From assembly GCA_023485865.1 (NCBI GenBank), contig JAMCZC010000002.1, forward strand, positions 1,000-64,999: a stretch of 64,000 nt of DNA, written 5' to 3'. The notes under the pieces were generated by a model that was not told the DNA's origin, did not search any database, and saw only the letters and a program-made list of their open reading frames with translations. Every line of letters begins with the position of its first letter. Within the stretch, counting starts at the first letter, position 1. The translations under genes were made by a program, and so were the position numbers. Of the stretch, positions 1-41,272 are shown piece after piece. The stretch is from Patescibacteria group bacterium. GTDB taxonomy: Bacteria > Patescibacteriota > Microgenomatia > Levybacterales > UBA12049.

Positions 1-43
1 TCAATAATATGTCGCTAAAGTTAATTTGTCAAGTGCTTTTCTG

Positions 44-400
44 TCAAAACCAAAACCTTCCTCTGCCGCCTCCTCCGCCCCCGCCATTTCCCCCACCGCC
101 GAAAATCAAAGTACTTACAATCTGGATAATGAAAAAGGAAGCGGAGATAACAATGAGTCCTACTATTGAATAAATCAGCCTATTTCTGGCAGACTGGATT
201 TTTTGCTTGTCTCCTCCCGACATTGTCCATTGAATTCCGGCAAATATTACAAAGGCCAGAGCCGCAACGTCTGCTAAGACAAACAATATGGTTAGAGCAA
301 CCTGGATAATGCCTATTCCGCTTGTGCCAAAGCCTCCGCTTGGAATGCCGCTCGGCACAGGAATAGGGCTCCCATTCATAGTCAAAGCTAACTCTTTCAT
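44..400 (-). CDS. TrbC/VirB2-like pilin (small two-helix membrane protein with Gly-rich C-terminus)
   Basis: 118 aa with two long hydrophobic helices separated by a short basic loop (QWTMSGGDKQKIQSARNRL), the TrbC/VirB2 pilin architecture. The C-terminus is a poly-Gly tail. ATGA start/stop overlap with the upstream gene on the same strand. Family assignment is from topology and motif only, not a search. Confidence 0.45.
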   Translation of the reverse strand: MKELALTMNGSPIPVPSGIPSGGFGTSGIGIIQVALTILFVLADVAALAFVIFAGIQWTMSGGDKQKIQSARNRLIYSIVGLIVISASFFIIQIVSTLIFGGGGNGGGGGGGRGRFWF

Positions 401-1548
401 GGTTTAAAAGCTGGTATATGCAATATGTCCACGCCGATTATTTGCAGTATAACAAGAGCGAAAATGATAAACAATAAGCCGACAATAGCCGCCGTAAGCT
501 GTTCCCTTGCCCCCTTAAGCGCTTCGGGATTGCCTTGGGATGATAATATTTTGTAGCCGGAAATGATAATTAATAGAAGCGCAACTCCCCCAGAAATGCT
601 CAATATTAAACCGAAAGCCCAAGCAATAAAACCTGAAGGATTAGTAGAAATACTTCCTAATGCAGTTTTGCAACTGTCTCCAAAGCAATTGATTTGGTTA
701 AACTGGTCCTGCGTTGTTCCTTTTTGACAAGTAAATTTCTGGTAGTCGGCGTCCGGCAGGCAAACGTATACCCCGTTGCCACAAGAGTTAGCCTTACTCG
801 GGTCGCACTCGCCAGTGGGAACACACGTGTAGGTAGAATTTAATGTAGGGTGGGAGCATGTAGTACTGCCTGTGCAGGCCGGAGAGCATCCTGTATTGGG
901 GACAAAATTGCATTTGCCAATTGTATTAACTCCATCTATGAAGTTGGCGTAAGTTCCAGAAGCGTATTCGCAAATTAAATTACTGCAACATGTCGCTTGG
1001 GTTCCTGCACTGCCAATGCACCCTGTTTGATCTTGTTTAATGCAGTTCGGGACAGGAGGCCTAACAGGAGAACCTTTAGGGTACGCACACCACATTTTGC
1101 CCGCATTATCAAATGAATAACAATACCCTGAACCTGAACATGAGGCTGAACCATAGCCCCATGCAGAACAATCATGGGTGCTGGTGGGGCATCTTGGATC
1201 TCTGTTGGCGCAGTTATAGATAGGGACTGGTGGCGCACCAGTTTTATAAGCACAAAAATGTGCATTATTTTCAGTAGAAAAATAACAACCATTAAGTGTA
1301 TGGCAGTCATTAGCGGGGGTTGCGCTACTTGTTAAATCCTTGCAGTTAGGGTATAGGGAGGTATTTTGCGGGTTACAAGTACTGCTAGTTGGGCTGTTAA
1401 ATCCCGCATTTGGCCTGTTTGAACAGTCAGCTGCATTAGCCTTGCCTGAGAAAGAGGTTAAGAAAAAAGAAATAAAAAAAAATGAAAAAATGAAAATAAA
1501 TATCTTCCTCACACTTTTATCGTACCTTAAGAAATAAACAAAATGCAA
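397..1548 (-). CDS. Secreted Cys-rich protein with C-terminal TrbC/VirB2-like pilin domain (putative pilus-associated adhesin)
   Basis: 383 aa. N-terminal signal-peptide-like hydrophobic segment ending AN-AAD. About 300 aa with roughly 40 Cys, rich in G/S/T/N/P. The last ~80 aa repeat the two-helix-plus-basic-loop pattern of the downstream pilin gene (GFIAWAFGL...YKILSSQGNPEALKGAREQL...IVGLLFIIFALVILQI). 4-nt overlap with the 44..400 gene. Confidence 0.5.
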   Translation of the reverse strand: MHFVYFLRYDKSVRKIFIFIFSFFFISFFLTSFSGKANAADCSNRPNAGFNSPTSSTCNPQNTSLYPNCKDLTSSATPANDCHTLNGCYFSTENNAHFCAYKTGAPPVPIYNCANRDPRCPTSTHDCSAWGYGSASCSGSGYCYSFDNAGKMWCAYPKGSPVRPPVPNCIKQDQTGCIGSAGTQATCCSNLICEYASGTYANFIDGVNTIGKCNFVPNTGCSPACTGSTTCSHPTLNSTYTCVPTGECDPSKANSCGNGVYVCLPDADYQKFTCQKGTTQDQFNQINCFGDSCKTALGSISTNPSGFIAWAFGLILSISGGVALLLIIISGYKILSSQGNPEALKGAREQLTAAIVGLLFIIFALVILQIIGVDILHIPAFKP

Positions 1549-1572
1549 GCCCTGCCCCTATAGATTTCCGAT

Positions 1573-1959
1573 TTATGATTTTTGATTAATGAATGTTTTA
1601 CTTTTTCTGATAAGGCCCTGCAAAAGCGGCCCAACGATATTTGATTGTTTACTTAAAATTGTAAATTGGCTTTCGGTTAAATAGCCTACGTCTTTTGCAA
1701 TAAGTATAAAATTTTTAAGCTCGGATAATGAACCTTTTGCTAAATAATAAAACTGGACTTTTTCTTTATAAGTTTGCCTTCCAAACCCCTCCGCGATATT
1801 TGCAGTTATTGAAGCCGCAGCTCGTCTCATCTGGTCGATTAGCGAGTAGGTTTCTTCTCTTGGGAAATCTTTGGTTATTTTATATACCAAAACAACTAAT
1901 TCATGCCCCTCTTTCCATACGTTCAGATCGGTAAATGATTCAATCTTTCCGTTATTCAT
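1573..1959 (-). CDS. four-helix-bundle protein (23S rRNA intervening-sequence protein family, TIGR02436-like)
   Basis: 128 aa, all-helical. Sequence pattern (W..GHELVVLVYKITKDFPREETYSLIDQMRRAAASITANIAEGFGR...YYLAKGSLSELKNFILIAKDVGYL) matches my memory of this family. Confidence 0.55.
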   Translation of the reverse strand: MNNGKIESFTDLNVWKEGHELVVLVYKITKDFPREETYSLIDQMRRAAASITANIAEGFGRQTYKEKVQFYYLAKGSLSELKNFILIAKDVGYLTESQFTILSKQSNIVGPLLQGLIRKSKTFINQKS

Positions 1960-1996
1960 AAATCTTTAATCAATAATCAGTAATCTTTAAATTTAC

Positions 1997-3382
1997 TTAC
2001 ACAGTAAATTTGAATCCGCGGCCTTTTACCGTTTGGATATGGTTTGGGGTATTGGGGTCGTTTTCTATTTTTTTTCTAAGCCTGAAAATAAGCTGGTCAA
2101 GGGCCTGGTTGGTAACTCCTGCAGTTGACTGCATATTTTCCCAAACTGCATTTATAATTTCTTCTCTTTCAATTATTTTTCCGGCATTTACGATAAAAAA
2201 TTTTAAGAGCTTAAATTCAGACGACGTAAGCTTATCCGAAATAACTAAATTCCCCTTTTTAACCTCATTGGAATTTTGGTCAAAAACAATCTTTTCATTT
2301 TCCGCCGAAAGCTTATTTTTTTCTAAAGCATAGTCTTTTAAAAGCGGAATCGTTAATTTGTTTTTGTCGATTAAACCAACGTTTTCAAGATAAGAAATGT
2401 CCTGATTGGCAAAATTTAAAAGCGTTAATAAGTTTTGTTCGAAAGGGTTTAGGCAGTTCCAAATGCCAAAAAGAGCGCTTCTTACGGGTTTTTGTTTAAG
2501 AAAAAACTCGCCCAGCTCCGAGCTAGACGCTAATGGTTGATTTTTGATTATTGATTTTTGATTATTGATTGTTAGAATTGCCTCCAAACAATGCCTGGTT
2601 AAATTTCCATGTCCTCCGGTTAAGGAAAGAACTTTCCCAAGCGTTTTCTTATCTATTTTTTTGCCTGTTACCTTTTCAAGATATGCAATTCTAAAATCAA
2701 GACCCGGTTTATCTAAAATAGGCAGGTACACAATTTTTCCTGCCATAAATTCGTAAAAATCTCCAAAAAATATAGGTTCAAAAATATCCTCCAGAGGTCT
2801 GGTTGCAGAAAAAACAACGGAAAAGCGGTATTTTGCCCTGTTTCTTAAAACTCTTAAGTTAGCGAAAAAATCAGCGGTTAAAGCGGGAACATATTCTTCG
2901 AACCTGTCTAAAAGGAAAACAATCGCAAGCTCTTTTTCTATGGCCAAAAAATCAATTGCCCTTTTTAGCCCCTGAAATAAAATCAACTCATCATTTAATT
3001 CGATGCTCTCTCTAAAAATTTTATTAACCGCGTCGTATTCATTTTCCATTTTTCTGCCTCTTAAAGAATCTAAAAGCCCTAGGAATATAAATTTAGTTGC
3101 GTCAAAAAGCGGTTTTTTTCTTATTTCCGAAAAATTTAAAAGCACAAAATGAAACCATTTTTGGTTTTCACCTAAATGTTTTAAGCGCACATTTCGGTTA
3201 TAAGCCAAGAGCCCTAAAAGGTTAGATCTTCCTATTCCGGGGACGCCAATTATTTGGCAGGAATTGCCCTCTTTAACAAAAGACAGAATTTTTTCAATCT
3301 CAGGAAATCTCGTATCTTCCGGATACAAAGATTCAAAATGAGAGGAATCGATTGTTAAATTGTTAAATTGTTTCATCTTCAT
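1997..3382 (-). CDS. Transcriptional regulator: N-terminal P-loop ATPase domain fused to C-terminal OmpR/PhoB-type winged-helix DNA-binding domain
   Basis: 461 aa. Walker-A-like GVPGIGRSNLLGLL near the N-terminus (Arg in place of Lys). The C-terminal ~100 aa has the OmpR trans_reg_C signature (FKLLKFFIVNAGKIIEREEIINAVWE...QALDQLIFRLRKKIE...IQTVKGRGFKFTV). Contains an in-frame 15-nt-period tandem repeat at 2536..2571. Confidence 0.55.
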   Translation of the reverse strand: MKMKQFNNLTIDSSHFESLYPEDTRFPEIEKILSFVKEGNSCQIIGVPGIGRSNLLGLLAYNRNVRLKHLGENQKWFHFVLLNFSEIRKKPLFDATKFIFLGLLDSLRGRKMENEYDAVNKIFRESIELNDELILFQGLKRAIDFLAIEKELAIVFLLDRFEEYVPALTADFFANLRVLRNRAKYRFSVVFSATRPLEDIFEPIFFGDFYEFMAGKIVYLPILDKPGLDFRIAYLEKVTGKKIDKKTLGKVLSLTGGHGNLTRHCLEAILTINNQKSIIKNQPLASSSELGEFFLKQKPVRSALFGIWNCLNPFEQNLLTLLNFANQDISYLENVGLIDKNKLTIPLLKDYALEKNKLSAENEKIVFDQNSNEVKKGNLVISDKLTSSEFKLLKFFIVNAGKIIEREEIINAVWENMQSTAGVTNQALDQLIFRLRKKIENDPNTPNHIQTVKGRGFKFTV

Positions 3383-3424
3383 ATCAAAAATAAAATTTTA
3401 AATATAGAATACACATAGTAAAAA

Positions 3425-3796
3425 TCAAATATTATTCCTTTTCCCTTTTAAAGTCAGGACGCTCGATCCGAATATTTTGGAAATTTCATCAAGTTCTGCC
3501 AAAATTGAATCTGCTTCCTCTTTCTCACCGTTACCTGTATCTCGCAATATCAAAACCCAAACCTTGCTTTCATTTGCCGACTTTAGAGAATGATGGAAAT
3601 AGTTCGTATAATCTTTCTTTGAACTTGCAGACTGGCCTTCTATGTAATTACCTAAAATACTTGTCCCGCTTCTTATTAATTGATCTCCGACAATTCTAGT
3701 TGTTTGGGACTTTTTACAATTTTCAACAAATTTAATAATCCTTAAAATAAGGCTATATAAACGTCTTTTAAATTCTCTTTCCCTATTATCTTTCAT
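3425..3796 (-). CDS. four-helix-bundle protein (TIGR02436-like), second copy
   Basis: 123 aa helical protein with the same family pattern (IVGDQLIRSGTSILGNYIEGQSASSKKDYTNYFHHSLKSANESKVWVLIL). It flanks the regulator on the other side. Confidence 0.5.
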   Translation of the reverse strand: MKDNREREFKRRLYSLILRIIKFVENCKKSQTTRIVGDQLIRSGTSILGNYIEGQSASSKKDYTNYFHHSLKSANESKVWVLILRDTGNGEKEEADSILAELDEISKIFGSSVLTLKGKRNNI

Positions 3797-3962
3797 ATTT
3801 AAAATTTAATATTTTATTTAAGTTTTGATATGTATTTTTTATATTTTATATTTAATCTTTTAATTCTCTTCCGCCTTTTGAATTGCTCTGTGGAACTATT
3901 GTAATTTTTTTGTTAGCTAAATATCAAGTTTTTTGTTTGCTTTGGGAATAGAATGACGGCAT

Positions 3963-6900
3963 ATGACAGAGCGAGGGCCAAGAGCAATTGATTTGACAAA
4001 CCAGGCTAATCCTCATAGACTGAATGTAAGAGGAGATATTTTTATGCCAGGAGAACCAGGTGGCGGAGAAACGCCGCCAATACATCATCCAGCAGCAGAA
4101 ACAAGCAAAAAGCCTAGCGAGCCAGCGGAGTCAAAACCAACCTCAAGATATTTACCTGTCACGTTTGAGAGGCAGCAAGAGGTAAGGGAAGCATGGATGA
4201 GAAGACGGGAAGAACAAGAAAGAGGCGGGGAAAGAATAACAAGGGAACAGCTCGAAACGGAAGAAAAACTTATAAGAATGGGAATTCCACCTATTTCAGG
4301 AGGTTCCGGTGATGAACCGGAAGATTCTCAAGGCCAACCTACGGAAACCGATGCGCAAGCTCCTGAAAGAAGAACATTTAAGCCATCTGCTGAATGGCAA
4401 GAAATTCCAAGAAGTGTGGCAATTCCTCCAGGGGCAACAATAAGAATGGATATGGAGTCAGGCAAAAGTTATGCCAAATGGGACACGCCTCCCGAAACAG
4501 AGATTGAATATGAATTTGGAGCAGAAAGTGCCGGAGATGGCGGAGGACAAGAGCCCCCAGTGCGAGGGGCGGGCCCTCCTGCCAGCCCCCCCGGCGGCGA
4601 TGGAGGAGGTAATGAACCGCCCGCTCCGCCAGTAACTCCACCAGGAGGAGAAGGCGGAAATGGAAATGGTGACGAAAATCCTCGGGAAGAACAAGAACCG
4701 GCAAACGAAGGAGCAGATGCGGCTCATGAGCCTGAATCTCCTACGTCGGCCGCAGATCCTATTAGCAAAGCATTGTCTAGGATTCCTGAAGACTTAACTA
4801 AGGATGAAAAAGATTTCATTAGCGAAAATTATGGTGAAGACGCAGAAGACTTAATAAAAAGAGCCACGGAACAAAGAAGGGCGCTAAAACTCTACGCAGA
4901 TCAATTTAGAGAAGAGCGATTTGATAGACTATTCGATCCGGAGCGCTCGTATTATAAATTGAGTGAAGCCATAAGAATGGGAGAGGTCTCCGCGGTAGAG
5001 GCTGAAGAGCTTCGAATGGCAATAGCAACAAGCGCTGTAGCGGAAAGATTACGAAGACAACCCCCTGAAGAAAGGGATGAGATAAGAGATCTACTAGAGA
5101 GAACAAAGGATGGTACGCCGGAAGCAAAACTAGAGAGAAGGAATGGTCTTAAGGGGTGGATTGAAAGAATTAATCCTGATTACATAACAGTTGATCCAAA
5201 TTTCATGCGAGCGGTTGCCGAAGACCCGGAAGCCGCGGAGATGTTTCTTGATAAGATAATTTCAAAACCCTTTGCCTCTCCTGAAGACCAATACAGCCTA
5301 AGCTTTTATGCGGCAATAAATTTATCGGGTTTCTTAACAGAAGTAAATGCCGTAAGTAGACAACGGCACACCGATTATGTGCGGAAAAAAGAAGCTTCGC
5401 TTAGGTTTCATGAAATGAACAGAACCATAATCTCCGAATCGGGCAATCTTGAAGCGTTTTTGAGTATCTCGCGATCGGTAACTCCTCAACACATACAAAC
5501 AGCAACAGAGATAACAGGGGCAGCGCACATGCGACATCTGATTGAAAGCGCCTTTAAAAGGCTATATGCGGCAAAAAATCAAGTAGAGGAACATGACTTT
5601 CCGGAGCAAATTATTGAACGGTCAATAAGGCAATTCTATAGAGATGCAGGGTATGAGCTTGTCGTTGAGCCCGGCGAAAATGAGGGGAAATGGGTATATA
5701 AAGGAAGAGACGTTATCAAAAGCGAATTCCGCGATGCCGATAATAACAAGAGACCCTTAGAAGTTTGGGAAATTGAAAGAGCAGTTGCATTTGGAAGAAA
5801 TATGTCTGCGGCCTTTTACCGTCTATCGGAGCTTGTTTCATGGAGTCATGTTTCCCCGGAAGCGCCGGAATGGCTTAAGTCTATGCCCTCGGAAACCGTG
5901 GTAAGAAATCTCGGAGGCCTTAAAATGCTTCAAGAAAGATTTAAATACGGCCAAACCAAAGGGGGTCCGCAGTTTGTTGCTCTTCTTTACGACAAACTAC
6001 AAAAAGGTTTTAAAGATAAATCCAAAGATTATAACGAAAAGCACGAGAAAGACGGAGAAAGAATGATTACTAAAATTGGCAAACTAAGCATTTTAACAGA
6101 CATACTTCCCACCGGTTTTTATAAGGCCTCGGGATTTGACAAGGGCTGGAGAACTATTGCCGCATACCTTGATACAAAAGTAGCAAGTATAACTATACCT
6201 GATTCAAACATTTTTCCTAATCTAACCAAAAAAGATTTTCCCGAACTCGATCCGAAAAACTTCCCTGACTATAAACCGGAGGATGTGCCAGGCATGGTGA
6301 GAAAAGCAATAGAAGAACTTATGGGTAAAATAAAAGGGAATGAAACAACCTTATATAGATTTCTTCTAAGCCAAGAGCTTGCTGCCCAGCTCGCTACCGC
6401 TGTAAGCGACAAGGAAGCTACGGCTGCCGGGGTATTAACTCCAAAGGAAGACAGACCGTTTAACGCTAAAATACAAAAAATACTTGTTGAACAAGCATTG
6501 ATGCCGCTTTTAGGATATAAATATAACCCGGAGGGAGCTAAGAAAAGAGCTAAAGAGAAAAACCCGCAAGAAGCTAATTGGATAGGTCCGTGGGAATATA
6601 AAGGAGATGCAGAAGCGGGAGATAGGATGGTAGACCAAATAAATCTATCTTTAGGGATTTTGATAGGAAATGGCTCGTCTTCGGAAAGAGTCAAAACTGC
6701 TCTCTGGAAGAAAACTGCGTCTTTCCTGCCGCTTGAAGTTGGGCAACTCTTATCAGAAGCAGGCGTCAGAGAACTTATCGATGATTATGATGTACACAAA
6801 GCCCCCAACGAAAAAATTCAAGGGGAGGGCGAGTTTCTTTTTAGCGACGAATTTGAGAGAAAATTATTCAGGGCGGAACAATCAAGAATTAGAGCGCAAG

Positions 6901-7679
6901 TTCAAGAGCAAGAGAGGGCGGTGGGCGCAGAGGCTAAAGCTGAAAGAATAGCTGGGAGAATTGAGCTCGACAGTTTTCTTGCAACAGCCGGTCTTGATGC
7001 GGATGAAATTGCTTTTGTAAGAAAACTTCAGAAGTTTGGTAAAGATAGAGCCGAACAACTTGCGATGGTTTCTTTCCCGCACATTCCCTTTCTGGAAGAC
7101 GTTCCTTTTGATAAGGCAGATTACATTAGTCTTGGCGCAGAAGTTTTTCCAAGACGAATCGGAAGAGATTTTAGCGGTTATGCAAAAGCAACAGAAGAAG
7201 GCGGAAATATTATCGGCCACCTTGAATTACCATACGAAAACTTTCTTGAAATAGTAGGAAAAGTAGAGGATAGCCTTTCGGGTCCGGAGGGTTCGATAGC
7301 TGCCCAAGATTTGGGCTCAACTTTTCTAAAAACATATATTGATCTTGCCAAACAATGGGGGATTACGCGTTTGCCGCTGGTTAAAGGGGTACGTGAGTTT
7401 AGGGGATTACCAACTTCCGGATTTCAGAAGATCTTCGGACGAGAAGCCCCCTCTTGGGGACCAACGGAGATAAACCATGAAGTTAATGTGGCGCTTGGTA
7501 AAGGACTGATAAGAAGGGAAATAATTCCTGGCGAAAAAGAGTCTCAGACGGATGAAATTTTGCATCACGCACGCGCTGCGTGGCTAAATGTTTTGAATGA
7601 GCAGGGGCCAAAAGGACTGATGTTTCTAATAATGACTGCTCTTTTTAAATTCTTCAAAGAGGTCACGAAAAGTAAGTAA
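3963..7679 (+). CDS. Large acidic hypothetical protein (1238 aa) with Pro/Gly/Glu-rich disordered N-terminal region
   Basis: Single long ORF with no competing frames. No signal peptide or TM segment is visible. Residues ~30-260 are low-complexity (PGGEGGNGNGDE, PPASPPGGDGGG) and locally GC-rich; the remainder looks globular. No domain recognised. The start could instead be the internal MPGEPGG. Confidence 0.6.
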   Translation: MTERGPRAIDLTNQANPHRLNVRGDIFMPGEPGGGETPPIHHPAAETSKKPSEPAESKPTSRYLPVTFERQQEVREAWMRRREEQERGGERITREQLETEEKLIRMGIPPISGGSGDEPEDSQGQPTETDAQAPERRTFKPSAEWQEIPRSVAIPPGATIRMDMESGKSYAKWDTPPETEIEYEFGAESAGDGGGQEPPVRGAGPPASPPGGDGGGNEPPAPPVTPPGGEGGNGNGDENPREEQEPANEGADAAHEPESPTSAADPISKALSRIPEDLTKDEKDFISENYGEDAEDLIKRATEQRRALKLYADQFREERFDRLFDPERSYYKLSEAIRMGEVSAVEAEELRMAIATSAVAERLRRQPPEERDEIRDLLERTKDGTPEAKLERRNGLKGWIERINPDYITVDPNFMRAVAEDPEAAEMFLDKIISKPFASPEDQYSLSFYAAINLSGFLTEVNAVSRQRHTDYVRKKEASLRFHEMNRTIISESGNLEAFLSISRSVTPQHIQTATEITGAAHMRHLIESAFKRLYAAKNQVEEHDFPEQIIERSIRQFYRDAGYELVVEPGENEGKWVYKGRDVIKSEFRDADNNKRPLEVWEIERAVAFGRNMSAAFYRLSELVSWSHVSPEAPEWLKSMPSETVVRNLGGLKMLQERFKYGQTKGGPQFVALLYDKLQKGFKDKSKDYNEKHEKDGERMITKIGKLSILTDILPTGFYKASGFDKGWRTIAAYLDTKVASITIPDSNIFPNLTKKDFPELDPKNFPDYKPEDVPGMVRKAIEELMGKIKGNETTLYRFLLSQELAAQLATAVSDKEATAAGVLTPKEDRPFNAKIQKILVEQALMPLLGYKYNPEGAKKRAKEKNPQEANWIGPWEYKGDAEAGDRMVDQINLSLGILIGNGSSSERVKTALWKKTASFLPLEVGQLLSEAGVRELIDDYDVHKAPNEKIQGEGEFLFSDEFERKLFRAEQSRIRAQVQEQERAVGAEAKAERIAGRIELDSFLATAGLDADEIAFVRKLQKFGKDRAEQLAMVSFPHIPFLEDVPFDKADYISLGAEVFPRRIGRDFSGYAKATEEGGNIIGHLELPYENFLEIVGKVEDSLSGPEGSIAAQDLGSTFLKTYIDLAKQWGITRLPLVKGVREFRGLPTSGFQKIFGREAPSWGPTEINHEVNVALGKGLIRREIIPGEKESQTDEILHHARAAWLNVLNEQGPKGLMFLIMTALFKFFKEVTKSK

Positions 7680-7709
7680 TAATCAGGGTCAGTCTCAAGC
7701 CTAAGATTT

Positions 7710-9428
7710 TCATTTACGCGTAAATGACGGCAATTTAGGGAGCCTTCTTCTTATATAATCCCCGGCTTCAAATACGAGCGCCTGTTTAACGATCGCACTC
7801 GCCGCAGATCCTGGAGCGCCTACAACCGCAGTTCCTGTTCCGAGGTATCTGCCTATCGGAGCAAGGTCAATTTTCGGAGCCTTAAAAGCAGCTTTTGTCA
7901 TATTTACAACACTCGGTGTGGAAAGTATGACTCCGACTGTGATTAAAGCACCTATTGCGCCGGATACTCCGGGGTTGCCAACAAGAGGAGGGACAAATTG
8001 TCCGCCGGTTTGCGTTGCGCCGACAGCAGTACTTAACATTTTTCCAATAAGGAACATAGCTATGGTTACCGGAAAAGCGGAAAGATTAGCAACTATATCT
8101 CTTAGCCAGGCACCGAAGCCTACATTTTGTGAATTCCCCCCAGGCATAAGGCCGGCTATTATCCAAAACGGCGCAAAAATAACATCCACCAAAACCATAA
8201 CGTAGGCTATAATAAGAGTAAACCAAAGCCTGATTAGCGCGGCAAAAACGGCAATAAAAATTATTAAAAATATAATTGTATTAGGGATAATTTCTCTTAA
8301 AAGGACTTCAAAGCCTGCGAGAGAAATAATTCCCGCCCCGCCCCCGATAAGAGTATTTAAGCCAGGTATGTTGCCGAAGAAACCTGCTGGATTTGCTTGA
8401 GCCACTTGTATGCCTGTCATTATTGCTGCTATGCTGCTTATTGTATGAATTAATATGTTTACAGGACTGTTATCAAGTACTCCTCCCAATGGCCCCCCGA
8501 TTCCTATAATGCTCCTAAACATATCTCCGAATGGACCTGCTACCCCCATTATTGCGTTAAAGCCTCCGCCTCCGCTTGCTCCGCCCTTTGCCATCGCATC
8601 AAAAGCTGCAAAAGGAGTGTTGCCTTGGAGAAAAACAGGATTTAGAGTACTTAAGTCAGCATTGGGAACGGACTTAGCAGTTTCAGAAAAAACATTAAAA
8701 AATAAATAAATAGCCACATACATTACGTCGATAAGAAATCCTGCAATTGCAAAGGAAAAAGTCACCATGAGTAATCCGATTATTATTTTGGGAATTTGGT
8801 TTTGAATAGTCATTACGGTTCTTGGGTCAATTTTGACTCTTAGCATGATTGCGATGCCTATAATTACAAACACTAAGATAAAAATAAGATAAACAATATT
8901 TCTGAAAACAGACCAAACGCCAATTAAGTTTAATTTGCTTAGCCCGCAAAACCCAATTCCGCGCGGGTCCTGATAGCAAGGGTTGGGGGCAGGAGATACG
9001 GCGTATGTGGGTTTTGAAATACCAAAATTTTGAGATAAATAGTTAATATAATCTCTGGAGCGTATGGGCGGAGTATATAGGATGGTAATTAAATTACCCA
9101 TTACCCCTACCGCGCCGCCGCCGTTTTCGACAAACCCGATTTTTCCGGTTTTTTGGTCAACGCCTAAGCATTTTGCCGAAGGATTGGTGGGGTCAACTCC
9201 TGCCAGCTGGCAAGTCATTGCCGACATTACTTCTATCATTACGTTTTGCGTCCAGTTGTGGAGATTATTCGGAACATCCGGATTTGTGTTTGGCGAGGTA
9301 TAAGAATTAACCGGTTGAGTTTGCGGCTGAACAGGTGCTTGGGCGAAGGTCGGTGCCTTAATAAGCAACAGCGAAAAAAATACAAGAAGAACAAAAATTA
9401 TGGATTTAAACAAGGCAGCTTTCCTCAT
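7710..9428 (-). CDS. TrbL/VirB6-like polytopic membrane protein (type IV secretion inner-membrane component-like)
   Basis: 572 aa. Signal peptide (MRKAALFKSIIFVLLVFFSLLLIKAPTFAQA) followed by a soluble N-terminal region. At least 6 TM helices and Gly-rich loops (GGASGGGGFNAIMGVAGPFG), typical of TrbL/VirB6. Assignment is from architecture; in the same locus as the pilin genes. Confidence 0.45.
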   Translation of the reverse strand: MRKAALFKSIIFVLLVFFSLLLIKAPTFAQAPVQPQTQPVNSYTSPNTNPDVPNNLHNWTQNVMIEVMSAMTCQLAGVDPTNPSAKCLGVDQKTGKIGFVENGGGAVGVMGNLITILYTPPIRSRDYINYLSQNFGISKPTYAVSPAPNPCYQDPRGIGFCGLSKLNLIGVWSVFRNIVYLIFILVFVIIGIAIMLRVKIDPRTVMTIQNQIPKIIIGLLMVTFSFAIAGFLIDVMYVAIYLFFNVFSETAKSVPNADLSTLNPVFLQGNTPFAAFDAMAKGGASGGGGFNAIMGVAGPFGDMFRSIIGIGGPLGGVLDNSPVNILIHTISSIAAIMTGIQVAQANPAGFFGNIPGLNTLIGGGAGIISLAGFEVLLREIIPNTIIFLIIFIAVFAALIRLWFTLIIAYVMVLVDVIFAPFWIIAGLMPGGNSQNVGFGAWLRDIVANLSAFPVTIAMFLIGKMLSTAVGATQTGGQFVPPLVGNPGVSGAIGALITVGVILSTPSVVNMTKAAFKAPKIDLAPIGRYLGTGTAVVGAPGSAASAIVKQALVFEAGDYIRRRLPKLPSFTRK

Positions 9429-9642
9429 AAACTATACGCTAGACGCTAATTGCTAAACGCTAAATATAGTTTGTCCTATTTTCTTATGGATGTCAACCCC
9501 GTTAAAACTCTGGTTATAAACTTGAATTTAATATGGGGATTGAAAATAGTCAGTTGAGCTTTGAACTAACAAAAGAAACAAAGTTTTAACGGGGTAAGGT
9601 TTGTTAAAAAACATAAATTGAAGTAAAATACCCTTAGGATAT

Positions 9643-9716
9643 GCTCTCGTAGCTCAGCTGGATAGAGCGCGACGTTGCGGACGTCGAGGCCGAAGGTTCG
9701 AATCCTTTCGAGAGCG
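9643..9716 (+). tRNA. tRNA-Arg (anticodon GCG)
   Basis: Manual cloverleaf. Acceptor GCTCTCG/CGAGAGC, D-stem GCTC/GAGC, anticodon stem CGACG/CGTCG with loop TTGCGGA (U33, G37). A20 present (Arg identity element). T-arm GAAGG-TTCGAAT-CCTTT, discriminator G. No CCA encoded. Confidence 0.75.
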
Positions 9717-9720
9717 CTAG

Positions 9721-9807
9721 GGAGGAGTGCAAGAGCGGTTTATTTGGCCGGTTTCGAAAACCGAGCGGGTCGTAAGACTCACACAGGTTCAAATCCTGTC
9801 TCCTCCG
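9721..9807 (+). tRNA. tRNA-Ser (anticodon CGA), type II
   Basis: Acceptor GGAGGAG/CTCCTCC. Anticodon loop TTCGAAA. Long variable arm. T-arm ACAGG-TTCAAAT-CCTGT. Closely resembles E. coli tRNA-Ser(CGA). Confidence 0.8.
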
Positions 9808-9808
9808 C

Positions 9809-10237
9809 ATGAAGTTTCAATTTTCAGCGGGCGGAGTAGTTTATAAGAAAAAAAACGGCGAGACTTTTATTTTGGTTGCCCAGCATTCCCAACATCACGG
9901 CTGGGTTTTCCCAAAAGGATTAATCGGCGATCATGTTGAAAACGAAGATAAAAACGAAACCGCCTTAAGGGAAGTTGAGGAAGAAACCGGAGTCCGTGGT
10001 AAAATTATAAAAACATTAAGCCCTACCGACTATTGGTATGTTTTTGAAGGCGAAAAAATAAAGAAAACAGTTTATTATTATTTAATGACTGTTGTTTCCG
10101 AAGACATAACGAAACATGACAAAGAAATGGAAAACGTAGAATGGCTATCTGCCGAAAAGGTGGAACAAAGATTAACCTATCCATCTGAAAAAAGAGTCTG
10201 GCAGGAAGCCTTAAAAATTTTAAATTTGAAATTTTAA
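9809..10237 (+). CDS. NUDIX hydrolase
   Basis: 142 aa. Nudix box GDHVENEDKNETALREVEEETGV (GX5EX7REUXEEXGU). Starts 2 nt after the tRNA-Ser. Confidence 0.8.
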   Translation: MKFQFSAGGVVYKKKNGETFILVAQHSQHHGWVFPKGLIGDHVENEDKNETALREVEEETGVRGKIIKTLSPTDYWYVFEGEKIKKTVYYYLMTVVSEDITKHDKEMENVEWLSAEKVEQRLTYPSEKRVWQEALKILNLKF

Positions 10238-10253
10238 ATTTGAAATTGAACTT

Positions 10254-10340
10254 GGTGGGATGTCCGAGTGGTTTAAGGAGCACGCTTGGAGAGCGTGTAT
10301 GGTCGCAAGATCATCCCGGGTTCGAATCCCGGTCCCACCG
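10254..10340 (+). tRNA. tRNA-Ser (anticodon GGA), type II
   Basis: GGTGGGA...TCCCACC acceptor. Anticodon stem-loop CACGC-TTGGAGA-GCGTG. Long variable arm. T-arm CCGGG-TTCGAAT-CCCGG. Near-identical in layout to E. coli tRNA-Ser(GGA). Confidence 0.85.
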
Positions 10341-10377
10341 CAAGTAAAACTTAGCTGGTACGTTCGATGCACCGCAC

Positions 10378-10983
10378 TTAAACGCCTTCAAGAGGGAAAT
10401 TTTTGGATAGCCAATCGGCTGATTTATCCATAAAAGTCGGTTTAATATATTCCCTGTAGGGAAGGAAAGGCAAAAGTACGGATTTAACGTGTTCTTCGCT
10501 TATATCTCCCAAAGTTATTGTTAACTCGCCCGGTATAAAAGCATGGGTTCTGACGTGTAAAATATCAATGCCATTTCTTTTTTTAAAATAAAAATCGTAA
10601 AGCTCCTGCCACAAGAAAAAATGATCTTCCACAGTTATTCCTTCAGTGCTAATTCTATAGTGAAAATCTCTGGGCGGAACAGTAGCCAGGGCAAAGGCCA
10701 CAAAAACGAGAGACAAAACAACGAGCATTAACATATATTGGGAAAAAAGAAAAAGAATTACCTCGACAAAAAGCATAATTAAAAGACTGGTTAAGTAATA
10801 CTGTTTTGTCCTTTTTTTAAAAGGCCTACCGGGAGCTGTCCAGGAAAGCAAAGTTTTAACCTCGTTTGGAACGTGATTTTGCAAAAAATCAGGAGCTCTT
10901 TGGGTTTCGTTCAGTTTTCCGCCAGAGGCGGATTTCACTTTCGCCGAGTCAGACTCGGCTTTGTTCAATTTTTGAGCAGCCAT
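10378..10983 (-). CDS. hypothetical membrane protein (two adjacent TM helices)
   Basis: 201 aa ORF with a central hydrophobic hairpin (LLIMLFVEVILFLFSQYMLMLVVLSLVFVAFALA). No recognisable catalytic motif. Confidence 0.45.
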   Translation of the reverse strand: MAAQKLNKAESDSAKVKSASGGKLNETQRAPDFLQNHVPNEVKTLLSWTAPGRPFKKRTKQYYLTSLLIMLFVEVILFLFSQYMLMLVVLSLVFVAFALATVPPRDFHYRISTEGITVEDHFFLWQELYDFYFKKRNGIDILHVRTHAFIPGELTITLGDISEEHVKSVLLPFLPYREYIKPTFMDKSADWLSKNFPLEGV

Positions 10984-11033
10984 AGTTTTACTTTATATCA
11001 ATAAAAATTTTAAGTCAACTGCGACGCTTGGCG

Positions 11034-11123
11034 TGGCGGAGAGGGTGAGATTCGAACTCACGGCTACCTATTGGCAACAAAGGTTTTCAAGACCTTCTCC
11101 TTAAGCCACTCGGACACCTCTCC
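11034..11123 (-). tRNA. tRNA-Ser (anticodon TGA), type II, CCA encoded
   Basis: Reverse complement reads GGAGAGG...anticodon stem-loop AAGGT-CTTGAAA-ACCTT...long variable arm...GTGAG-TTCGAAT-CTCAC-CCTCTCC-G-CCA. Confidence 0.8.
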
Positions 11124-11177
11124 TTAGCTTAATATTATAATTCAACTAAAGGTCGATTGCTAGAAGCTAGAGGCTGA

Positions 11178-12986: not shown

Positions 12987-12999
12987 AGAAAAGAGGACT

Positions 13000-13093
13000 T
13001 GGCGGAGGAGGTGAGATTCGAACTCACGCGAGCCTTATTCAGGCTCAAGGGTTTAGCAAACCCTCGCAATGGACCATGCTATGCGACTCCTCC
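13000..13093 (-). tRNA. tRNA-Ser (anticodon GCT), type II, CCA encoded
   Basis: Reverse complement: GGAGGAG acceptor. Anticodon stem-loop AGGGT-TTGCTAA-ACCCT. Long variable arm. T-arm GTGAG-TTCGAAT-CTCAC. 3' end CTCCTCC-G-CCA. Confidence 0.8.
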
Positions 13094-36640: not shown

Positions 36641-37180
36641 ATGTCAGTCTATACAAGATTTGGGGATAAAGGTAAAACTTCTTTATACGGCGGGAAAGCG
36701 GTTTCTAAAGGCAGTTTAAGAATTGATGCATATGGTAGTCTTGATGAATTAAATAGCGCGATAGGGGTTGTTCTTACCGAAATTCAAAACCCCGGCGTAA
36801 AAAAAGAGTTGTTGCTTATCCAAAACGACTTATTTGCAATCGGCGCAAGTCTTGCAAGCAACATGGAGAATAAAAAACTTGGAGAATATTTAAAAAAGAG
36901 GGTTAGGGATTTTGAAAAACAAATAGACAGCTTATCGGAAAAGCTTCCCGAGCTTATGAATTTTATACTTCCGGGAGGGGGAAAAGCGGGTTCGTTTTTG
37001 CACCTTGCAAGAACTGTTTGCAGACGCTCCGAAAGAAGGGTCGTTGAACTTTTGGAAAAAGAGAACGTCAATAAAGAAACGTTAATCTATATTAATAGGC
37101 TTTCGGACTTGCTTTTTACTTTCGCAAGATATATAAATTACCAAGAAAAGAAAAAAGAAATTATCTGGTCTTCCAGATAA
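36641..37180 (+). CDS. PduO-type ATP:cob(I)alamin adenosyltransferase
   Basis: MSVYTRFGDKGKTSLYGGKAVSKGSLRIDAYGSLDELNSAIG matches the PduO/MMAB N-terminal signature. Confidence 0.8.
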   Translation: MSVYTRFGDKGKTSLYGGKAVSKGSLRIDAYGSLDELNSAIGVVLTEIQNPGVKKELLLIQNDLFAIGASLASNMENKKLGEYLKKRVRDFEKQIDSLSEKLPELMNFILPGGGKAGSFLHLARTVCRRSERRVVELLEKENVNKETLIYINRLSDLLFTFARYINYQEKKKEIIWSSR

Positions 37181-37184
37181 AATC

Positions 37185-37330: not shown

Positions 37331-37331
37331 T

Positions 37332-38899: not shown

Positions 38900-41272
38900 A
38901 TGTTTTTACGAACTTTTTCTCTGGACAATTTGATGTCTCTTTTTATTTCCTTATTGATTGGTCTTTTTATTGCGGCCATTTTAGTTTTGCTTTTGGTTTT
39001 GCTGTCTTATGTTTTTGTTCTTTGGTATAGAAATAGAGACAGAGAAAGGCAGTCTTTAGAATCGACTCTTTTACAAGTTACTCTTCCCAGGGACAACGAG
39101 ATAAAAATCGATGCGGCAGAGCAGCTTTTTTCAAGTTTTGGCTCAATGAGAAAAGGCGGAAGGCTGTCTTTTTTAAAGCTTCAGCCCCATTTGTCTTTTG
39201 AAATTGTCGGAATGCCGGGAGATATCCGTTTTTACGTTAACACCCCTAATAAATTTAAAGATTTAGTTGAAAAACAAATAAACGGAGCATATCCTGATGC
39301 GGAGATTAAGGTAGTCGATGAAAAATCCCAGAAGCCGGGTTATGTCTTAGGCAACGAATATAATATTTTTGCCGACAATGCCAAGGTTGCTTTTGCAAGC
39401 CTTAGACTCAAAAGTTCAAACTACGCACCGATAAAAGTATTTAAGGATTTGCCAACAGACCCCCTGTCTTCAATTACTTCAGTTCTGGCAAAAATGACTT
39501 TGGGGGAGGGAGCGGCAATTCAGGTCTTAATCAGTCCTGCCGATTCAAAATGGAAAAAAATGGGAAGAAAGTACATTGCCAGAACAAAAAAGAACGAGTC
39601 AAATCCCGAGACGGCAAAGTATTCGGCAGATCCAAAAGAGCTTGAGGGAATAGAAAATAAAATAGGCAAACCCGGGTTTAATACGGTTGTAAGAATTGTT
39701 GTTTCTTCAAGCTCCGTGGAGGCTGCTTCTGCGCATCTTGGTAATATAACCAGTGCCTTTTCCCAATTTGACGGGGCAAATTCATTCACTAAAAACAAGC
39801 ATCGGTTTAAAGGAATGTTTATGACAGATTTTATCTATAGATTTTTGCCGATGAGAGGGCAAACGTCGGTTTTAACCAGCGAAGAATTGGCAACAATTTT
39901 TCATTTCCCAAATAAAAGTGTTTCAACGCCTCATATCTTTTGGATTTCCTCCAAAAGAGCACCTGCTCCGGCTCAAATTCCGGACAGCGGTTTATACCTT
40001 GGAATGAGTACTTTTAGAGGCTTGAGCAGGCCTGTTTATATGCAAAGAGATGACAGAAGAAGGCATATGTATGTAATTGGAAAAACCGGTGTCGGAAAAT
40101 CGGAATTTCTAAAAGATATGATTTTGCAGGATATTAAAAACGGGGAAGGGGTTTGTTTTATAGACCCTCACGACACAATAGACAAACTGTTGCCGCTTAT
40201 TCCGCCCGAGCGAGCCGAAGACGTAATCCTTTTTGACCCTTCGGATACCGACAGGCCGATGGGTTTGAATATGCTTGAGGCAAATACCGAATCGGAAAAA
40301 CATTACGTTGTCTCATCAATTGTCGGTCTTATGTACAAACTTTACGATCCCAATAAAACAGGTATTATCGGGCCTCGTTTTGAACACGCAATAAGAAACG
40401 CAATGTTAACCGTAATGTATGAAAAAGGCAGTACTTTTGTCGAGGTTGTAAGAGCTTTGACAGACGCAACTTTTGTCCAGGAGCTTTTGCCAAAAGTTCA
40501 GGACCCTATTATCAGACGTTATTGGACAGACCAGATTGCCCAGACTTCAGACTTTCACAAATCCGAAGTTTTAGATTACATTGTTTCCAAATTCGGCCGT
40601 TTTGTTACCAATAAAATGATGAGAAACATTATCGGCCAATCTTCCTCGGCTTTTGATTTTAGAAAAGTTATGGATGAGGGAAAAATTCTTTTAGTTTCTC
40701 TTTCTAAAGGGAAAATAGGAGAGGAAAATGCCAGCTTTTTAGGCTTAATTCTGGTCCCTAAAATTTTGGTGGCCGCAATGAGCAGGCAAGATATCCCTGA
40801 AGAACAAAGACGGGATTTCTTTCTGTATGTTGACGAGTTCCAAAACTTCGCCACTCCCGATTTTGCCCAAATATTGTCGGAGGCAAGAAAATACAGGCTT
40901 GATTTAATTGTTGCCAATCAGTTTATCGGGCAAATGGACGAAGAGGTTAAGAACGCAATTTTTGGCAATGTCGGAACGCTTGTTTCTTTTAGGGTAGGAG
41001 TAACGGATGCAAATTATCTTGCGCATGAATTCCAGCCGACTTTTACGGAAGCCGATTTAATCAATGTAGACGTCTACAATACTTATGTTAAAACAATAGT
41101 GCATAATGAACCGGTTACGCCTTTTTCTATGGATTTAACCCGTGATATGAGTAAAGAAAAAGATCTTGCCAATCCAAGAGTGGCAGAGTTAATAAGAGAG
41201 CTTTCAAGGCTAAAATTCGGTAAAGATGTCCGAACGATAGAAGGAGAAATTGCCCAAAGAGCCAGGCTCTAA
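38900..41272 (+). CDS. Type-IV-secretion coupling-protein-like ATPase (VirD4/TraG/TraD-VirB4 superfamily) with N-terminal TM anchor
   Basis: 790 aa. N-terminal TM helix. Walker A GKTGVGKSEF. Walker B FFLYVDEFQNF, followed by RKYRLDLIVANQFIGQ...IFGNVGTLVSFRV, the pattern seen after the DEF box in TraG/VirD4-type T4CPs. Subfamily cannot be settled by eye. Confidence 0.55.
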   Translation: MFLRTFSLDNLMSLFISLLIGLFIAAILVLLLVLLSYVFVLWYRNRDRERQSLESTLLQVTLPRDNEIKIDAAEQLFSSFGSMRKGGRLSFLKLQPHLSFEIVGMPGDIRFYVNTPNKFKDLVEKQINGAYPDAEIKVVDEKSQKPGYVLGNEYNIFADNAKVAFASLRLKSSNYAPIKVFKDLPTDPLSSITSVLAKMTLGEGAAIQVLISPADSKWKKMGRKYIARTKKNESNPETAKYSADPKELEGIENKIGKPGFNTVVRIVVSSSSVEAASAHLGNITSAFSQFDGANSFTKNKHRFKGMFMTDFIYRFLPMRGQTSVLTSEELATIFHFPNKSVSTPHIFWISSKRAPAPAQIPDSGLYLGMSTFRGLSRPVYMQRDDRRRHMYVIGKTGVGKSEFLKDMILQDIKNGEGVCFIDPHDTIDKLLPLIPPERAEDVILFDPSDTDRPMGLNMLEANTESEKHYVVSSIVGLMYKLYDPNKTGIIGPRFEHAIRNAMLTVMYEKGSTFVEVVRALTDATFVQELLPKVQDPIIRRYWTDQIAQTSDFHKSEVLDYIVSKFGRFVTNKMMRNIIGQSSSAFDFRKVMDEGKILLVSLSKGKIGEENASFLGLILVPKILVAAMSRQDIPEEQRRDFFLYVDEFQNFATPDFAQILSEARKYRLDLIVANQFIGQMDEEVKNAIFGNVGTLVSFRVGVTDANYLAHEFQPTFTEADLINVDVYNTYVKTIVHNEPVTPFSMDLTRDMSKEKDLANPRVAELIRELSRLKFGKDVRTIEGEIAQRARL

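Follow-up and report, generated by a model that had tools for sequence, protein, structure and literature searches.

The Regulator-Proximal End of a Chromosomal Type IV Secretion/Pilus Locus in Levybacteria, with a Candidate Regulator, a Two-Way Promoter and a Fast-Changing Giant Protein

Introduction

What kind of machine is encoded by a gene cluster in which VirB2-like pilins, a winged-helix regulator, a giant acidic protein and a polytopic membrane protein stand side by side, and is this machine complete in itself? The question is raised by positions 1-9428 of a 64,000-nucleotide stretch of DNA from a Patescibacteria group bacterium of the Levybacterales (assembly GCA_023485865.1, contig JAMCZC010000002.1, positions 1,000 to 64,999 of the forward strand), the whole of which is referred to here as the window. 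An earlier note had read positions 1-9428 as a compact, minimalist secretion or attachment apparatus resembling a type IV secretion system (T4SS) or pilus, provided with its own ATP-dependent transcriptional switch and with a matching ATPase at 38.9 kb. The open reading frame (ORF) listing and profile searches find seven genes in this region and support all seven listed genes as real. They constitute the regulator-proximal end of a chromosomal T4SS/pilus locus of the patescibacterial type, in the form carried by Levybacteria (Microgenomatia), which is cut by the edge of the window. The full explanation favored here, in which this end of a T4SS locus is regulated by a dedicated protein acting on an operator box, carries a giant accessory protein and has been entered by mobile cassettes, is given a rough probability of 0.6. 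The genes are named REG (461 amino acids, aa), BIG (1,238 aa), POLY (572 aa) and ivp (the four-helix-bundle genes), in addition to two pilin genes.

Chromosomal T4SSs have been described in Patescibacteria, where VirB4 groups with the monoderm MPF-FATA systems and is accompanied by TrsD, VirB3/PrgI and arrays of divergent VirB2-like pilins, according to a survey (PMC12102498). The survey also reports that VirB6 is ‘scarce’ in Microgenomatia, that VirB8 homologues are rarely detected in Patescibacteria, and that VirD4-like genes are mostly unlinked and relaxases mostly absent in this group. Moreover, the T4SS and pilin array of Southlakia epibionticum (SEML1_0006-0019) are essential for epibiotic growth in this species, the one in which the question has been put to the test (PMC10633639; review, PMC12857230). 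The T4SS itself is thus already known, and the locus in the window is the Levybacteria version of the described system. Both share the chromosomal location, the array of divergent VirB2-like pilins, the CD1110-type VirB4, TrsD and PrgI/VirB3-like genes carried by relatives, and a VirD4-like gene elsewhere in the genome. The Levybacteria version differs in its AAA+/winged-helix regulator, bidirectional operator and hypervariable giant protein, none of which was found mentioned in the portions of PMC12102498 and PMC10633639 considered; likewise, keyword searches of PMC12102498 brought up neither winged-helix regulators nor four-helix-bundle genes. Literature searches returned nothing relevant on the Levybacteria T4SS, on patescibacterial winged-helix regulators or on the biology of intervening-sequence (IVS) proteins. 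As far as searched, REG, its operator and the giant protein appear undescribed, and the new elements comprise REG with its degenerate P-loop, the bidirectional operator/promoter, BIG with its nested starts, and the cassette behavior of the IVS-protein genes; the functions given below to REG, the box and BIG are inferred from sequence comparison.

Gene Order and Extent of the Locus

An alignment of REG was used to fetch 80 species-level genome loci, in which genes were located by means of iterated profiles derived from the proteins of the window and of one related locus, L001. Across these 80 genomes the order POLY, BIG, REG, pilins, PrgI-like gene, TrsD and VirB4 is kept, a strongly positive outcome of the co-occurrence check that bears out the T4SS/pilus-like character proposed for the region. 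In the canonical arrangement, BIG is convergent with POLY and REG is divergent from BIG, with ivp genes optionally placed on either side of REG and the large pilin gene coming next; relatives then continue with about three small pilins, a PrgI-annotated gene of about 400 aa, a TraC-like/TrsD gene of about 220 aa and an ATPase gene of about 650 aa. VirB4 is found 3' of the pilins in 47-49 related loci, and the TraC-like/TrsD and PrgI-annotated genes in 49-52; all three lie outside positions 1-9428, beyond the edge at which the locus is cut. The ATPase beside the L001 locus, where TrsD is also detected, scores 382 bits against the NCBIfam model conju_CD1110 (cut-off 325) and is a CD1110-type VirB4. 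In a minority of loci, termed variant B, REG is inverted and stands upstream of the big gene and co-directional with it. BIG itself has only 12 close homologues, all from Patescibacteria/Levybacteria and all with the same neighborhood on their contigs.

The window starts 43 nt past the stop codon of the second pilin gene, that is, inside the locus. A promoter-like TTGACA-N17-TATTAT (4..32, minus strand), which agrees with 11 of 12 consensus positions and is a consensus match only, faces the window edge, and in relatives the next pilin gene lies where this site points. Since the order continues in relatives and an outward promoter-like site stands at the start of the window, the ‘compact’ look is, by this comparison, an edge effect, and the minimalist character ascribed to the apparatus is not upheld: relatives carry further pilins, the PrgI-like gene, TrsD and VirB4 beyond this point. 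Exact-protein look-ups with REG and the small pilin for sequence beyond window position 1 gave nothing, and the large pilin was matched only on a 1.9-kb contig.

A neighborhood of NUDIX, His phosphatase, ComF-like, SmpB and SpoIID genes flanks the locus in distant relatives too, and the rest of the window, with transfer-messenger RNA, SmpB, NrdR, class II ribonucleotide reductase and tRNA genes, resembles a small Patescibacteria chromosome. No relaxase was noticed among the precomputed Pfam annotations of the neighbors, although no search aimed at relaxases was made.

Pilins

Both pilin genes exceed the cut-off of the Pfam family T4SS_pilin (PF18895; 26.6 bits), which confirms their assignment as VirB2-like. 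The small pilin (44..400, minus strand; 118 aa) scores 28.0 bits and has two predicted membrane helices; by comparison with relatives, which carry three to five pilin genes per locus, it belongs to an array of about four genes. The large pilin (397..1548, minus strand; 383 aa) reaches 31.2 bits over residues 307-371. In it, a signal/anchor helix and a hypervariable outer domain rich in Cys are combined with a VirB2-like domain at the C-terminus, and only the C-terminal ~23% can be aligned with relatives. The same design recurs in variant-A loci, where the first pilin gene after the regulator encodes a fusion of 300-500 aa that joins a hypervariable Cys-rich outer domain to a VirB2-like C-terminus. 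Large pilins contain 3.75% Cys on average, and the one in the window is a candidate tip or adhesin pilin.

The Regulator REG

In REG (1997..3382, minus strand), an ORC/STAND-like AAA+ domain is joined to an OmpR/PhoB winged helix at the C-terminus, so that the pairing of a P-loop domain with an OmpR-type winged helix, already noted from the sequence, stands. The first 360 residues adopt an AAA+ fold, with a P-loop NTPase core of the ORC/STAND group, together with helical domains, and the C-terminal domain is a Trans_reg_C winged helix, 28-31% identical to solved OmpR-family DNA-binding domains. No Response_reg match was found in Pfam, nor an N-terminal receiver with a phospho-acceptor Asp. The family comprises more than 1,240 proteins that are 60-86% identical to the window REG, and its recognition helix is invariant in 23 sequences at T424, Q426, A427, D429, Q430, L431, R434, L435, R436 and K438.

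The proposal that REG operates as an ATP-dependent switch is not supported by its P-loop. The Walker A sequence reads G-V-P-G-I-G-R-S in the window, and its Arg52 is no local oddity: an Arg at this site of the G-x-G-R-S motif is real, and 114 of 115 close homologues share it. Most of the 82 species compared likewise have Arg, while Lys occurs in 6 and Gln in 3, and one clade shows G-V-S-R-S. At Walker B the sequence is D-R/K-F-E-E and not D-E, and REG is thus devoid of both the catalytic Walker A Lys (GxxxxGK[ST]) and the Walker B pattern hhhhDE. Changes of this kind in P-loop enzymes usually abolish hydrolysis. Because the Walker A Lys is replaced and the P-loop is degenerate, a switch driven by ATP hydrolysis appears unlikely, and the AAA+ module is more plausibly a nucleotide- or ligand-binding oligomerization module than an ATPase motor. 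The Walker A variant (K, R or Q) shows no association with regulator orientation among the loci.

Comparison with known proteins sets REG apart from each of its likely models. Orc1/Cdc6 and the ‘archaeal ATPase’ proteins (PDB 2qen and 2fna) also place an AAA+ domain before a winged helix, but their identity to REG is only 10-14%, and REG differs from the Orc1/Cdc6 type in having a winged helix of the OmpR/PhoB Trans_reg_C kind and in the replacement of the Walker A Lys by Arg. Compared with the STAND factors MalT and the large SARP/AfsR regulators, REG has a domain order reversed relative to AfsR, is much smaller (461 aa), contains no BTAD, TPR or sensor repeat and has a degenerate P-loop. With the OmpR/PhoB response regulators it shares the winged helix, whereas the receiver and the phospho-acceptor Asp are missing and no partner histidine kinase is encoded within the locus.

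The Bidirectional Promoter and the Candidate Operator

REG and BIG diverge across a bidirectional promoter of about 75 bp that is conserved across species. When the BIG-upstream spacers of 68 loci are aligned, 49 of them share, on the BIG strand, the consensus (tgTaa)-N6-TTGTaA-N5-TTgTaA-N5-ATATCAAG-N20-TAaAcT-N8-ATG. The corresponding box in the window, TTGTAA-N5-TTGTTA-N5-ATATCAAG (3899..3928, plus strand), contains TGTAA repeats phased at 11 bp, and its anchor is found in these same 49 of 68 upstream regions. The box is overlapped by a leftward sigma-70-type promoter, TTGATA-N18-TACAAT (3898..3927, minus strand; 10 of 12 consensus positions), directed toward the second ivp gene, REG and the pilins. 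In loci free of ivp genes, the leftward TACAAT is present in 14 of 18, and in 15 of 18 the -10 element and the REG start are 6-15 nt apart. On the BIG side, a -10-like element (TAaAcT in the consensus) precedes the first start codon, ATG(A), by about 8 nt, with no Shine-Dalgarno sequence; in the window this element, P1, consists of TAGAAT, 8 nt and ATG(A) at 3963 (3949..3965, plus strand), a putative leaderless start of the long form of BIG. The pattern TAnAnT followed after 6-10 nt by ATG is found at 59 of 79 box sites. As the -10 boxes stand a few nt from the starts and no Shine-Dalgarno sequence is present on the BIG side, REG and BIG both look leaderless or nearly so.

The box is closely tied to the locus. 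It is the sole match in the 64 kb of the window, where 0.02 would be expected, and a search of related loci (1.43 Mb) with a position-weight matrix yields 81 sites, 49 of them directly before the BIG slot. The other 32, as read, all lie within locus genes: some precede truncated BIG genes or a BIG with an extended ORF call, and others precede further acidic proteins that are encoded beside POLY and end in a C-terminal hydrophobic helix. In variant B the box stays with the big gene, although transcription from the leftward promoter would there run into the end of REG, and the C needed only by the leftward -35 element is relaxed, giving ATATAAAG. Conversely, the single BIG locus without REG, L006, is also without the box. 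Moreover, the middle TTGTAA repeat is conserved although it lies inside the promoter spacer, where conservation is not expected.

Proteins of the OmpR/PhoB family bind hexamer repeats spaced 5 nt apart, as in the PhoP and PmrA boxes, and an 11-bp phasing is likewise known from PhoB boxes. The candidate operator has the same layout as the PhoP and PmrA boxes, namely hexamer repeats with 5-nt spacing and an 11-bp period. The 11-bp phasing, the restriction to the locus, the retention with the big gene and the joint loss in L006 together suggest that REG acts on the box.

Second copies of the box were observed before the gene 5' of POLY in L039, L052, L057, L060, L072 and L081, and before a gene divergent from POLY in L046, L051, L063 and L070. 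The acidic proteins encoded there have 260-810 aa, and the six inspected have a low-complexity N-terminus, a C-terminal hydrophobic helix and a basic tail. They share the general build of BIG, which suggests a small family of box-controlled proteins.

The Giant Protein BIG and Its Nested Starts

BIG (3963..7679, plus strand) is, as described from its sequence, a huge acidic protein without a signal: its ORF encodes 1,238 aa with an isoelectric point of 5.2, is Cys-free and mostly alpha-helical, and has neither a predicted signal peptide nor a predicted internal membrane helix. Residues 1-270 consist of 14% Pro, 13% Gly and 14% Glu, in line with the P/G/E-rich N-terminus reported for it. The C-terminus carries a short hydrophobic stretch and then a basic tail, the stretch being below the membrane-helix threshold in the window protein. 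No match to BIG was found in Pfam, NCBIfam, PDB, PADLOC or PHROGs, there are no detectable relatives outside its own family, and eight sampled family members contain no Pfam domain. A defence-system or phage origin was considered and set aside, as PADLOC gave no hits and PHROGs matched only a generic winged helix and an Avd-like family.

The beginning of the gene contains a second set of start signals. Within the BIG frame lies P2 (3993..4046, plus strand), composed of TTGACA-N17-TAGACT (3993-4021), GGAG near 4032 and a second start codon, ATG(B), at 4044, which corresponds to Met28. This pattern follows 46 of 79 box sites, compared with 14 of 5,000 random windows. At the protein level, the same region appears as a conserved motif, ‘ELT...TL..RGDIFMPEPG’, that is confined to BIG-slot proteins and could be mistaken for an N-terminal secretion or docking peptide. 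This candidate was rejected in favor of promoter and ribosome-binding signals in the DNA, because the codon choice is fixed while a residue within the -10 box varies. Thus, ‘ELT’ corresponds to GAA-TTGACA, with the Leu codon TTG in 40 of 40 cases and the Thr codon ACA in 38 of 40; 17 nt past TTGACA comes TAnACT, whose internal codon varies between Arg, Thr and Lys; and ‘RGDIFM’ corresponds to AGAGGAGATATTTTT-ATG, in which a ribosome-binding site is followed, after a spacer of 8 nt, by a start codon. The case also serves as a methodological warning, since a conserved ‘N-terminal peptide motif’ is here fully explained by an in-frame promoter with its ribosome-binding site.

The frame from ATG(A) to ATG(B) is interrupted by a stop in only 4 of 44 loci, compared with 43 and 44 of 44 in the other two frames, which indicates that the extension is kept translatable. 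The simplest reading is that two forms of BIG would be made, the long form arising from the leaderless P1 and the short form, which begins at Met28, from the internal P2.

Variability of BIG

A profile search in 1.84 billion representatives delimits a BIG family of 412 clusters at 50% identity, and the identity between its members fails to track the relatedness of their genomes. Where REG is 82-84% identical, BIG is 22-51% identical over part of its length, and where REG is 57-60% identical, BIG is 38-45% identical over most of its length. Among 1,953 locus pairs, the pairwise identities of REG correlate with those of POLY at a Spearman rho of 0.52 and with those of BIG at 0.19, whereas the value for VirB4 reaches 0.77 (741 pairs with VirB4). 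In the three closest relatives, the DNA is ~80% identical through REG and 76-91% through 3958-4054; from 4055 to ~8720, a segment comprising the BIG body and POLY beyond residue ~236, no similarity is detectable, and then it resumes. The BIG body is replaced between close relatives, with sharp boundaries. This pattern is typical of diversifying selection or allele exchange, and it fits a cargo or host-specificity protein better than a core structural role.

Two further readings of this region were examined and not retained. A foreign origin of BIG was suggested by its GC content of 0.44-0.49, but its GC content at third codon positions (GC3) is 0.346, typical of the genome, and the excess lies at first positions, through codons for Glu, Gly, Pro and Ala; BIG thus bears no sign of recent foreign origin. 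A joint exchange of BIG with the C-terminal half of POLY, as expected if the two were in physical contact, was suggested by the similarity gap that spans both, but receives no support from the correlations: among 700 locus pairs, rho with BIG is 0.11 for the C-terminal and 0.18 for the N-terminal part of POLY, and 0.49 versus 0.45 in close pairs.

POLY and the Unlinked Coupling-Protein Homologue

POLY (7710..9428, minus strand; 572 aa) is a polytopic membrane protein with a signal peptide and ~8 hydrophobic helices in a hydropathy scan. It has 880 homologues and is present in 75 of 88 loci, with BIG convergent to it in 72. Searches of Pfam, NCBIfam and the PDB sequence set returned no match for the protein of the window, which leaves the VirB6-like label unsupported by a direct hit; its polytopic nature, however, is confirmed, and the label gains ground through its homologues. 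In a test of 26 family members, two (P0151 and P0165, 51-52% identical to POLY) exceed the Pfam TrbL/VirB6 cut-off (PF04610; 32 bits versus 25.9), covering profile positions 42-209 of 215. These two homologues, the ~8 hydrophobic helices and the fixed position in the locus support POLY as a divergent TrbL/VirB6 member by transitive homology. As in TrbL/VirB6, a polytopic membrane protein is encoded in a T4SS locus; POLY differs in that its N-terminus forms a conserved outer domain of ~130 aa and its central part varies, and in that the regulator, the giant gene and the pilins stand between its gene and virB4. The VirB6 of Levybacteria is too divergent for direct detection, and POLY is a candidate for the VirB6 described as scarce in Microgenomatia (PMC12102498).

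In the 5' leader of POLY (9431-9470, minus strand), short repeats with a period of 7-8 nt were observed (TTAGCG, TTAGCA, TTAGCG, CTAGCG). Repeats of the GCTAAT or GCTAGT type occur in ivp-gene leaders of L009, L011, L012 and L019, and some of these may be cassette-stem arms.

The ATPase at 38.9 kb (38900..41272, plus strand; 790 aa), proposed as the partner of the locus and described as VirD4/VirB4-like, is a VirD4/TraD/TrwB-type coupling-protein homologue and not a VirB4. It passes Pfam cut-offs only for coupling-protein families (TraG-D_C, 24.9 bits, cut-off 22; TrwB_AAD_bind, 23.1 bits, cut-off 20.5), contains a single hydrophobic helix, at the N-terminus, and finds TrwB and DotL among its PDB matches, while every NCBIfam match is far below its cut-off. 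The partnership is not supported: no counterpart is encoded within 10 kb of REG in any of 88 loci, and the scan of the 64-kb window found no operator box near the ATPase gene. A shared genome is its sole tie to the T4SS locus, which fits the unlinked VirD4-like genes published for Patescibacteria (PMC12102498).

Four-Helix-Bundle Genes as Probable Mobile Cassettes

Two four-helix-bundle genes flank REG in the window, as had been stated, and both are real. The first (1573..1959, minus strand) scores 126.5 bits with PF05635 (23S_rRNA_IVP; cut-off 33.8) and 115 with TIGR02436 (cut-off 24), and is enclosed by inverted-repeat arms at 1570-1592 and 1963-1985, which are 23 nt long and 83% complementary; its flank duplex has a z-score of -3.1, and the minimum-energy RNA fold pairs both ends. 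The second cassette (3367..3865, minus strand; gene 3425-3796) scores 67.1 and 81.7 bits, with arms at 3388-3434 and 3819-3865 (47 nt, 74% complementary) and a flank duplex z-score of -1.8. It is inserted between the leftward promoter and REG, and its segment 3367-3863 is 83% identical to a cassette of L009 that occupies another position, between the PrgI-like gene and TrsD. More generally, flank complementarity is far stronger around 60 ivp genes (median z -2.3) than around 186 small pilin genes (0.16; Mann-Whitney p = 1.6e-19).

As functional flankers of the regulator, however, these genes do not hold up. They are present in 39 of 85 loci, in varying positions: before or after REG, between pilins, before the PrgI-like gene or before TrsD. 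In rRNA, IVS elements consist of an ORF enclosed by inverted repeats. The ivp genes resemble these elements and the 23S rRNA IVS and Avd-like proteins in that their family scores are well above cut-off and inverted repeats enclose the ORF, but they differ in lying in the spacers of a protein-coding operon and not in rRNA, none of which is present in the window, and in varying in number and position between species. They thus appear to behave as mobile IVS-like cassettes of ~400-500 nt bracketed by inverted repeats, and they resemble rRNA intervening sequences moved into mRNA spacers. The mapped ORFs showed neither a reverse transcriptase nor a template repeat that would point to a diversity-generating retroelement.

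Proposed Operation and Alternative Explanations

In the proposed mechanism, REG would bind the TTGTAA repeats through its invariant OmpR/PhoB recognition helix, like tandem-binding members of the OmpR family, and would repress its own promoter, which also drives the pilin operon, while controlling the leaderless P1 transcript of BIG. P2, a consensus promoter in frame with its own ribosome-binding site, would give a basal level of the shorter BIG from Met28. BIG would be a lineage-specific T4SS accessory under diversifying selection, most likely a cargo, an effector or a host-specificity factor that the machine handles, and the ivp cassettes would have landed in the untranslated spacers of the operon, outside the logic of the system. 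The effector role proposed from the sequence alone may thus hold, and what speaks for it is indirect, namely the linkage of BIG to the T4SS genes, its hypervariability and its basic C-terminal tail. A bolder version holds that REG is a dedicated master switch of the T4SS, a pseudo-ATPase ORC/STAND-OmpR hybrid acting on 11-bp-phased TTGTAA repeats, and that the two BIG isoforms are cargo exchanged as cassettes; this version is tentative, and its chances are well below even. If it were true, a switch at a shared bidirectional leaderless promoter would choose between expression of the pilus and regulator and expression of two BIG isoforms, and BIG, exchanged as a cassette between lineages, would be the first protein put forward as cargo or host-specificity determinant for a T4SS of Patescibacteria.

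Several points weigh against the mechanism as a whole. The presence of the PrgI-like gene, TrsD and VirB4 next in this genome is extrapolated from relatives; leaderless translation from ATG(A) is suggested solely by spacing and by the open frame; the TTGTAA repeats partly coincide with the leftward -10 element, and targets of REG could lie outside the 10-kb flanks examined. As regards BIG, no recognizable secretion signal or known domain was found, its all-alpha AlphaFold2 model is of low confidence (pLDDT 66, pTM 0.39), and Foldseek comparison of this model with PDB gave only insignificant helical-repeat matches (best E 0.03, TM 0.14). Nor does a low Cys content separate cargo from machine, since core T4SS parts are equally Cys-poor (0.11% in VirB4 and 0.07% in the PrgI-like protein, compared with 0.08% in BIG).

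This last point is shared with the view that BIG is a cytoplasmic, membrane-tethered structural or assembly part of the T4SS, anchored by its C-terminal hydrophobic helix, and not cargo. BIG could then be, for example, a functional stand-in for undetected VirB8-like or docking components, in keeping with the rare detection of VirB8 homologues in Patescibacteria (PMC12102498). A large ORF does occupy the slot beside VirB6 in 72 loci, the last 10 residues of BIG-slot proteins have a net positive charge in 57 of 68, and a hydrophobic segment lies within the last 45 residues in 31 of 68, although this segment is under the membrane-helix threshold in the window protein. Core parts, however, co-diverge with the genome (rho 0.77 between REG and VirB4), which BIG does not (0.19), and replacement between genomes whose REG proteins are 82-89% identical would be unusual for a structural subunit; a structural role is therefore considered doubtful, if still a sizeable minority chance. 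The regulatory part of the proposal meets another objection, namely that the 75-bp element would be a constitutive pair of back-to-back sigma-70 promoters with a spacer conserved for other reasons, REG acting on other genes or being no transcription factor at all. Its best-conserved blocks are indeed the -35 (TTGATA) and -10 (TACAAT, TAAACT) hexamers, and promoter-like matches over the whole region are no commoner than in shuffled sequence. Nevertheless, a pair of constitutive promoters would explain neither the conserved middle TTGTAA repeat in a normally unconstrained spacer nor the exact 11-bp phasing known from OmpR/PhoB-family boxes, nor the retention of the element before the big gene in variant B, where the leftward promoter would be pointless. 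Moreover, none of the 81 matrix hits, as read, is away from locus genes, and REG always adjoins the element, so that constitutive promoters are judged unlikely and control by REG is preferred.

Two other explanations concern the locus as a unit. A self-contained minimalist apparatus made of two pilins, a VirB6 and one substrate, driven by the ATPase at 38.9 kb and governed by an ATP-hydrolyzing switch, would agree with the existence of all the named genes and of a coupling-protein-like ATPase at 38900-41272. It is very unlikely in view of the additional pilins, PrgI-like gene, TrsD and VirB4 that follow in relatives, of a window that begins 43 nt after a pilin stop at a promoter-like site pointing outward, of the 790-aa ATPase, which in no locus is encoded less than 10 kb from the regulator and which lacks an operator box, and of the replaced Walker A Lys of REG. 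An integrative conjugative element or another recently acquired island, instead of a core chromosomal system, would recall the conjugative ancestry of the T4SS (PMC12102498), the tyrosine recombinase gene at 41524-42390 and the exchange of the BIG body between lineages. The recombinase, however, is 32 kb off and looks like XerC/D, the locus genes have a GC3 typical of the genome, the same housekeeping flank (NUDIX, His phosphatase, ComF-like, SmpB, SpoIID) recurs in distant relatives, and the annotated neighbors included no noticed relaxase, no search aimed at relaxases having been made; such an origin is thus regarded as improbable in the extreme.

Under the favored explanation, a T4SS locus end regulated by REG, the locus offers a candidate regulator with a sharply defined candidate operator, approachable in vitro without cultivation, together with a protein, BIG, that may be cargo or a determinant of specificity and that is replaced between close relatives in a manner reminiscent of host-interaction genes. 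The regulator, the two-way promoter and the giant fast-changing protein would be handles on the role of the T4SS machine.

Other Features of the Window

Next to the T4SS locus, positions 9643-13093 contain four tRNA-Ser genes (CGA, GGA, TGA, GCT) and one tRNA-Arg gene, interleaved with genes for a NUDIX protein, a 201-aa membrane protein and a P-type ATPase. Upstream of the VirD4-like ATPase gene, an AdoCbl-II riboswitch (37171-37251, plus strand) stands directly 5' of two ORFs without a family match (37260-38444 and 38489-38896; 394 and 135 aa), which lie after the genes for a cobalamin adenosyltransferase and the B12-dependent class II ribonucleotide reductase and may serve B12 uptake or binding. 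Finally, at 44028-44297 (plus strand) a group I intron (Rfam RF00028, 78.8 bits, 44047-44240) appears to split the anticodon loop of a tRNA-Met/fMet(CAT)-like gene, with the exons GCGGGGTAGTG...GTGAGGCT and CATAATCTCAC...CCCCGCA; this tRNA was read by eye and not called by ARAGORN.

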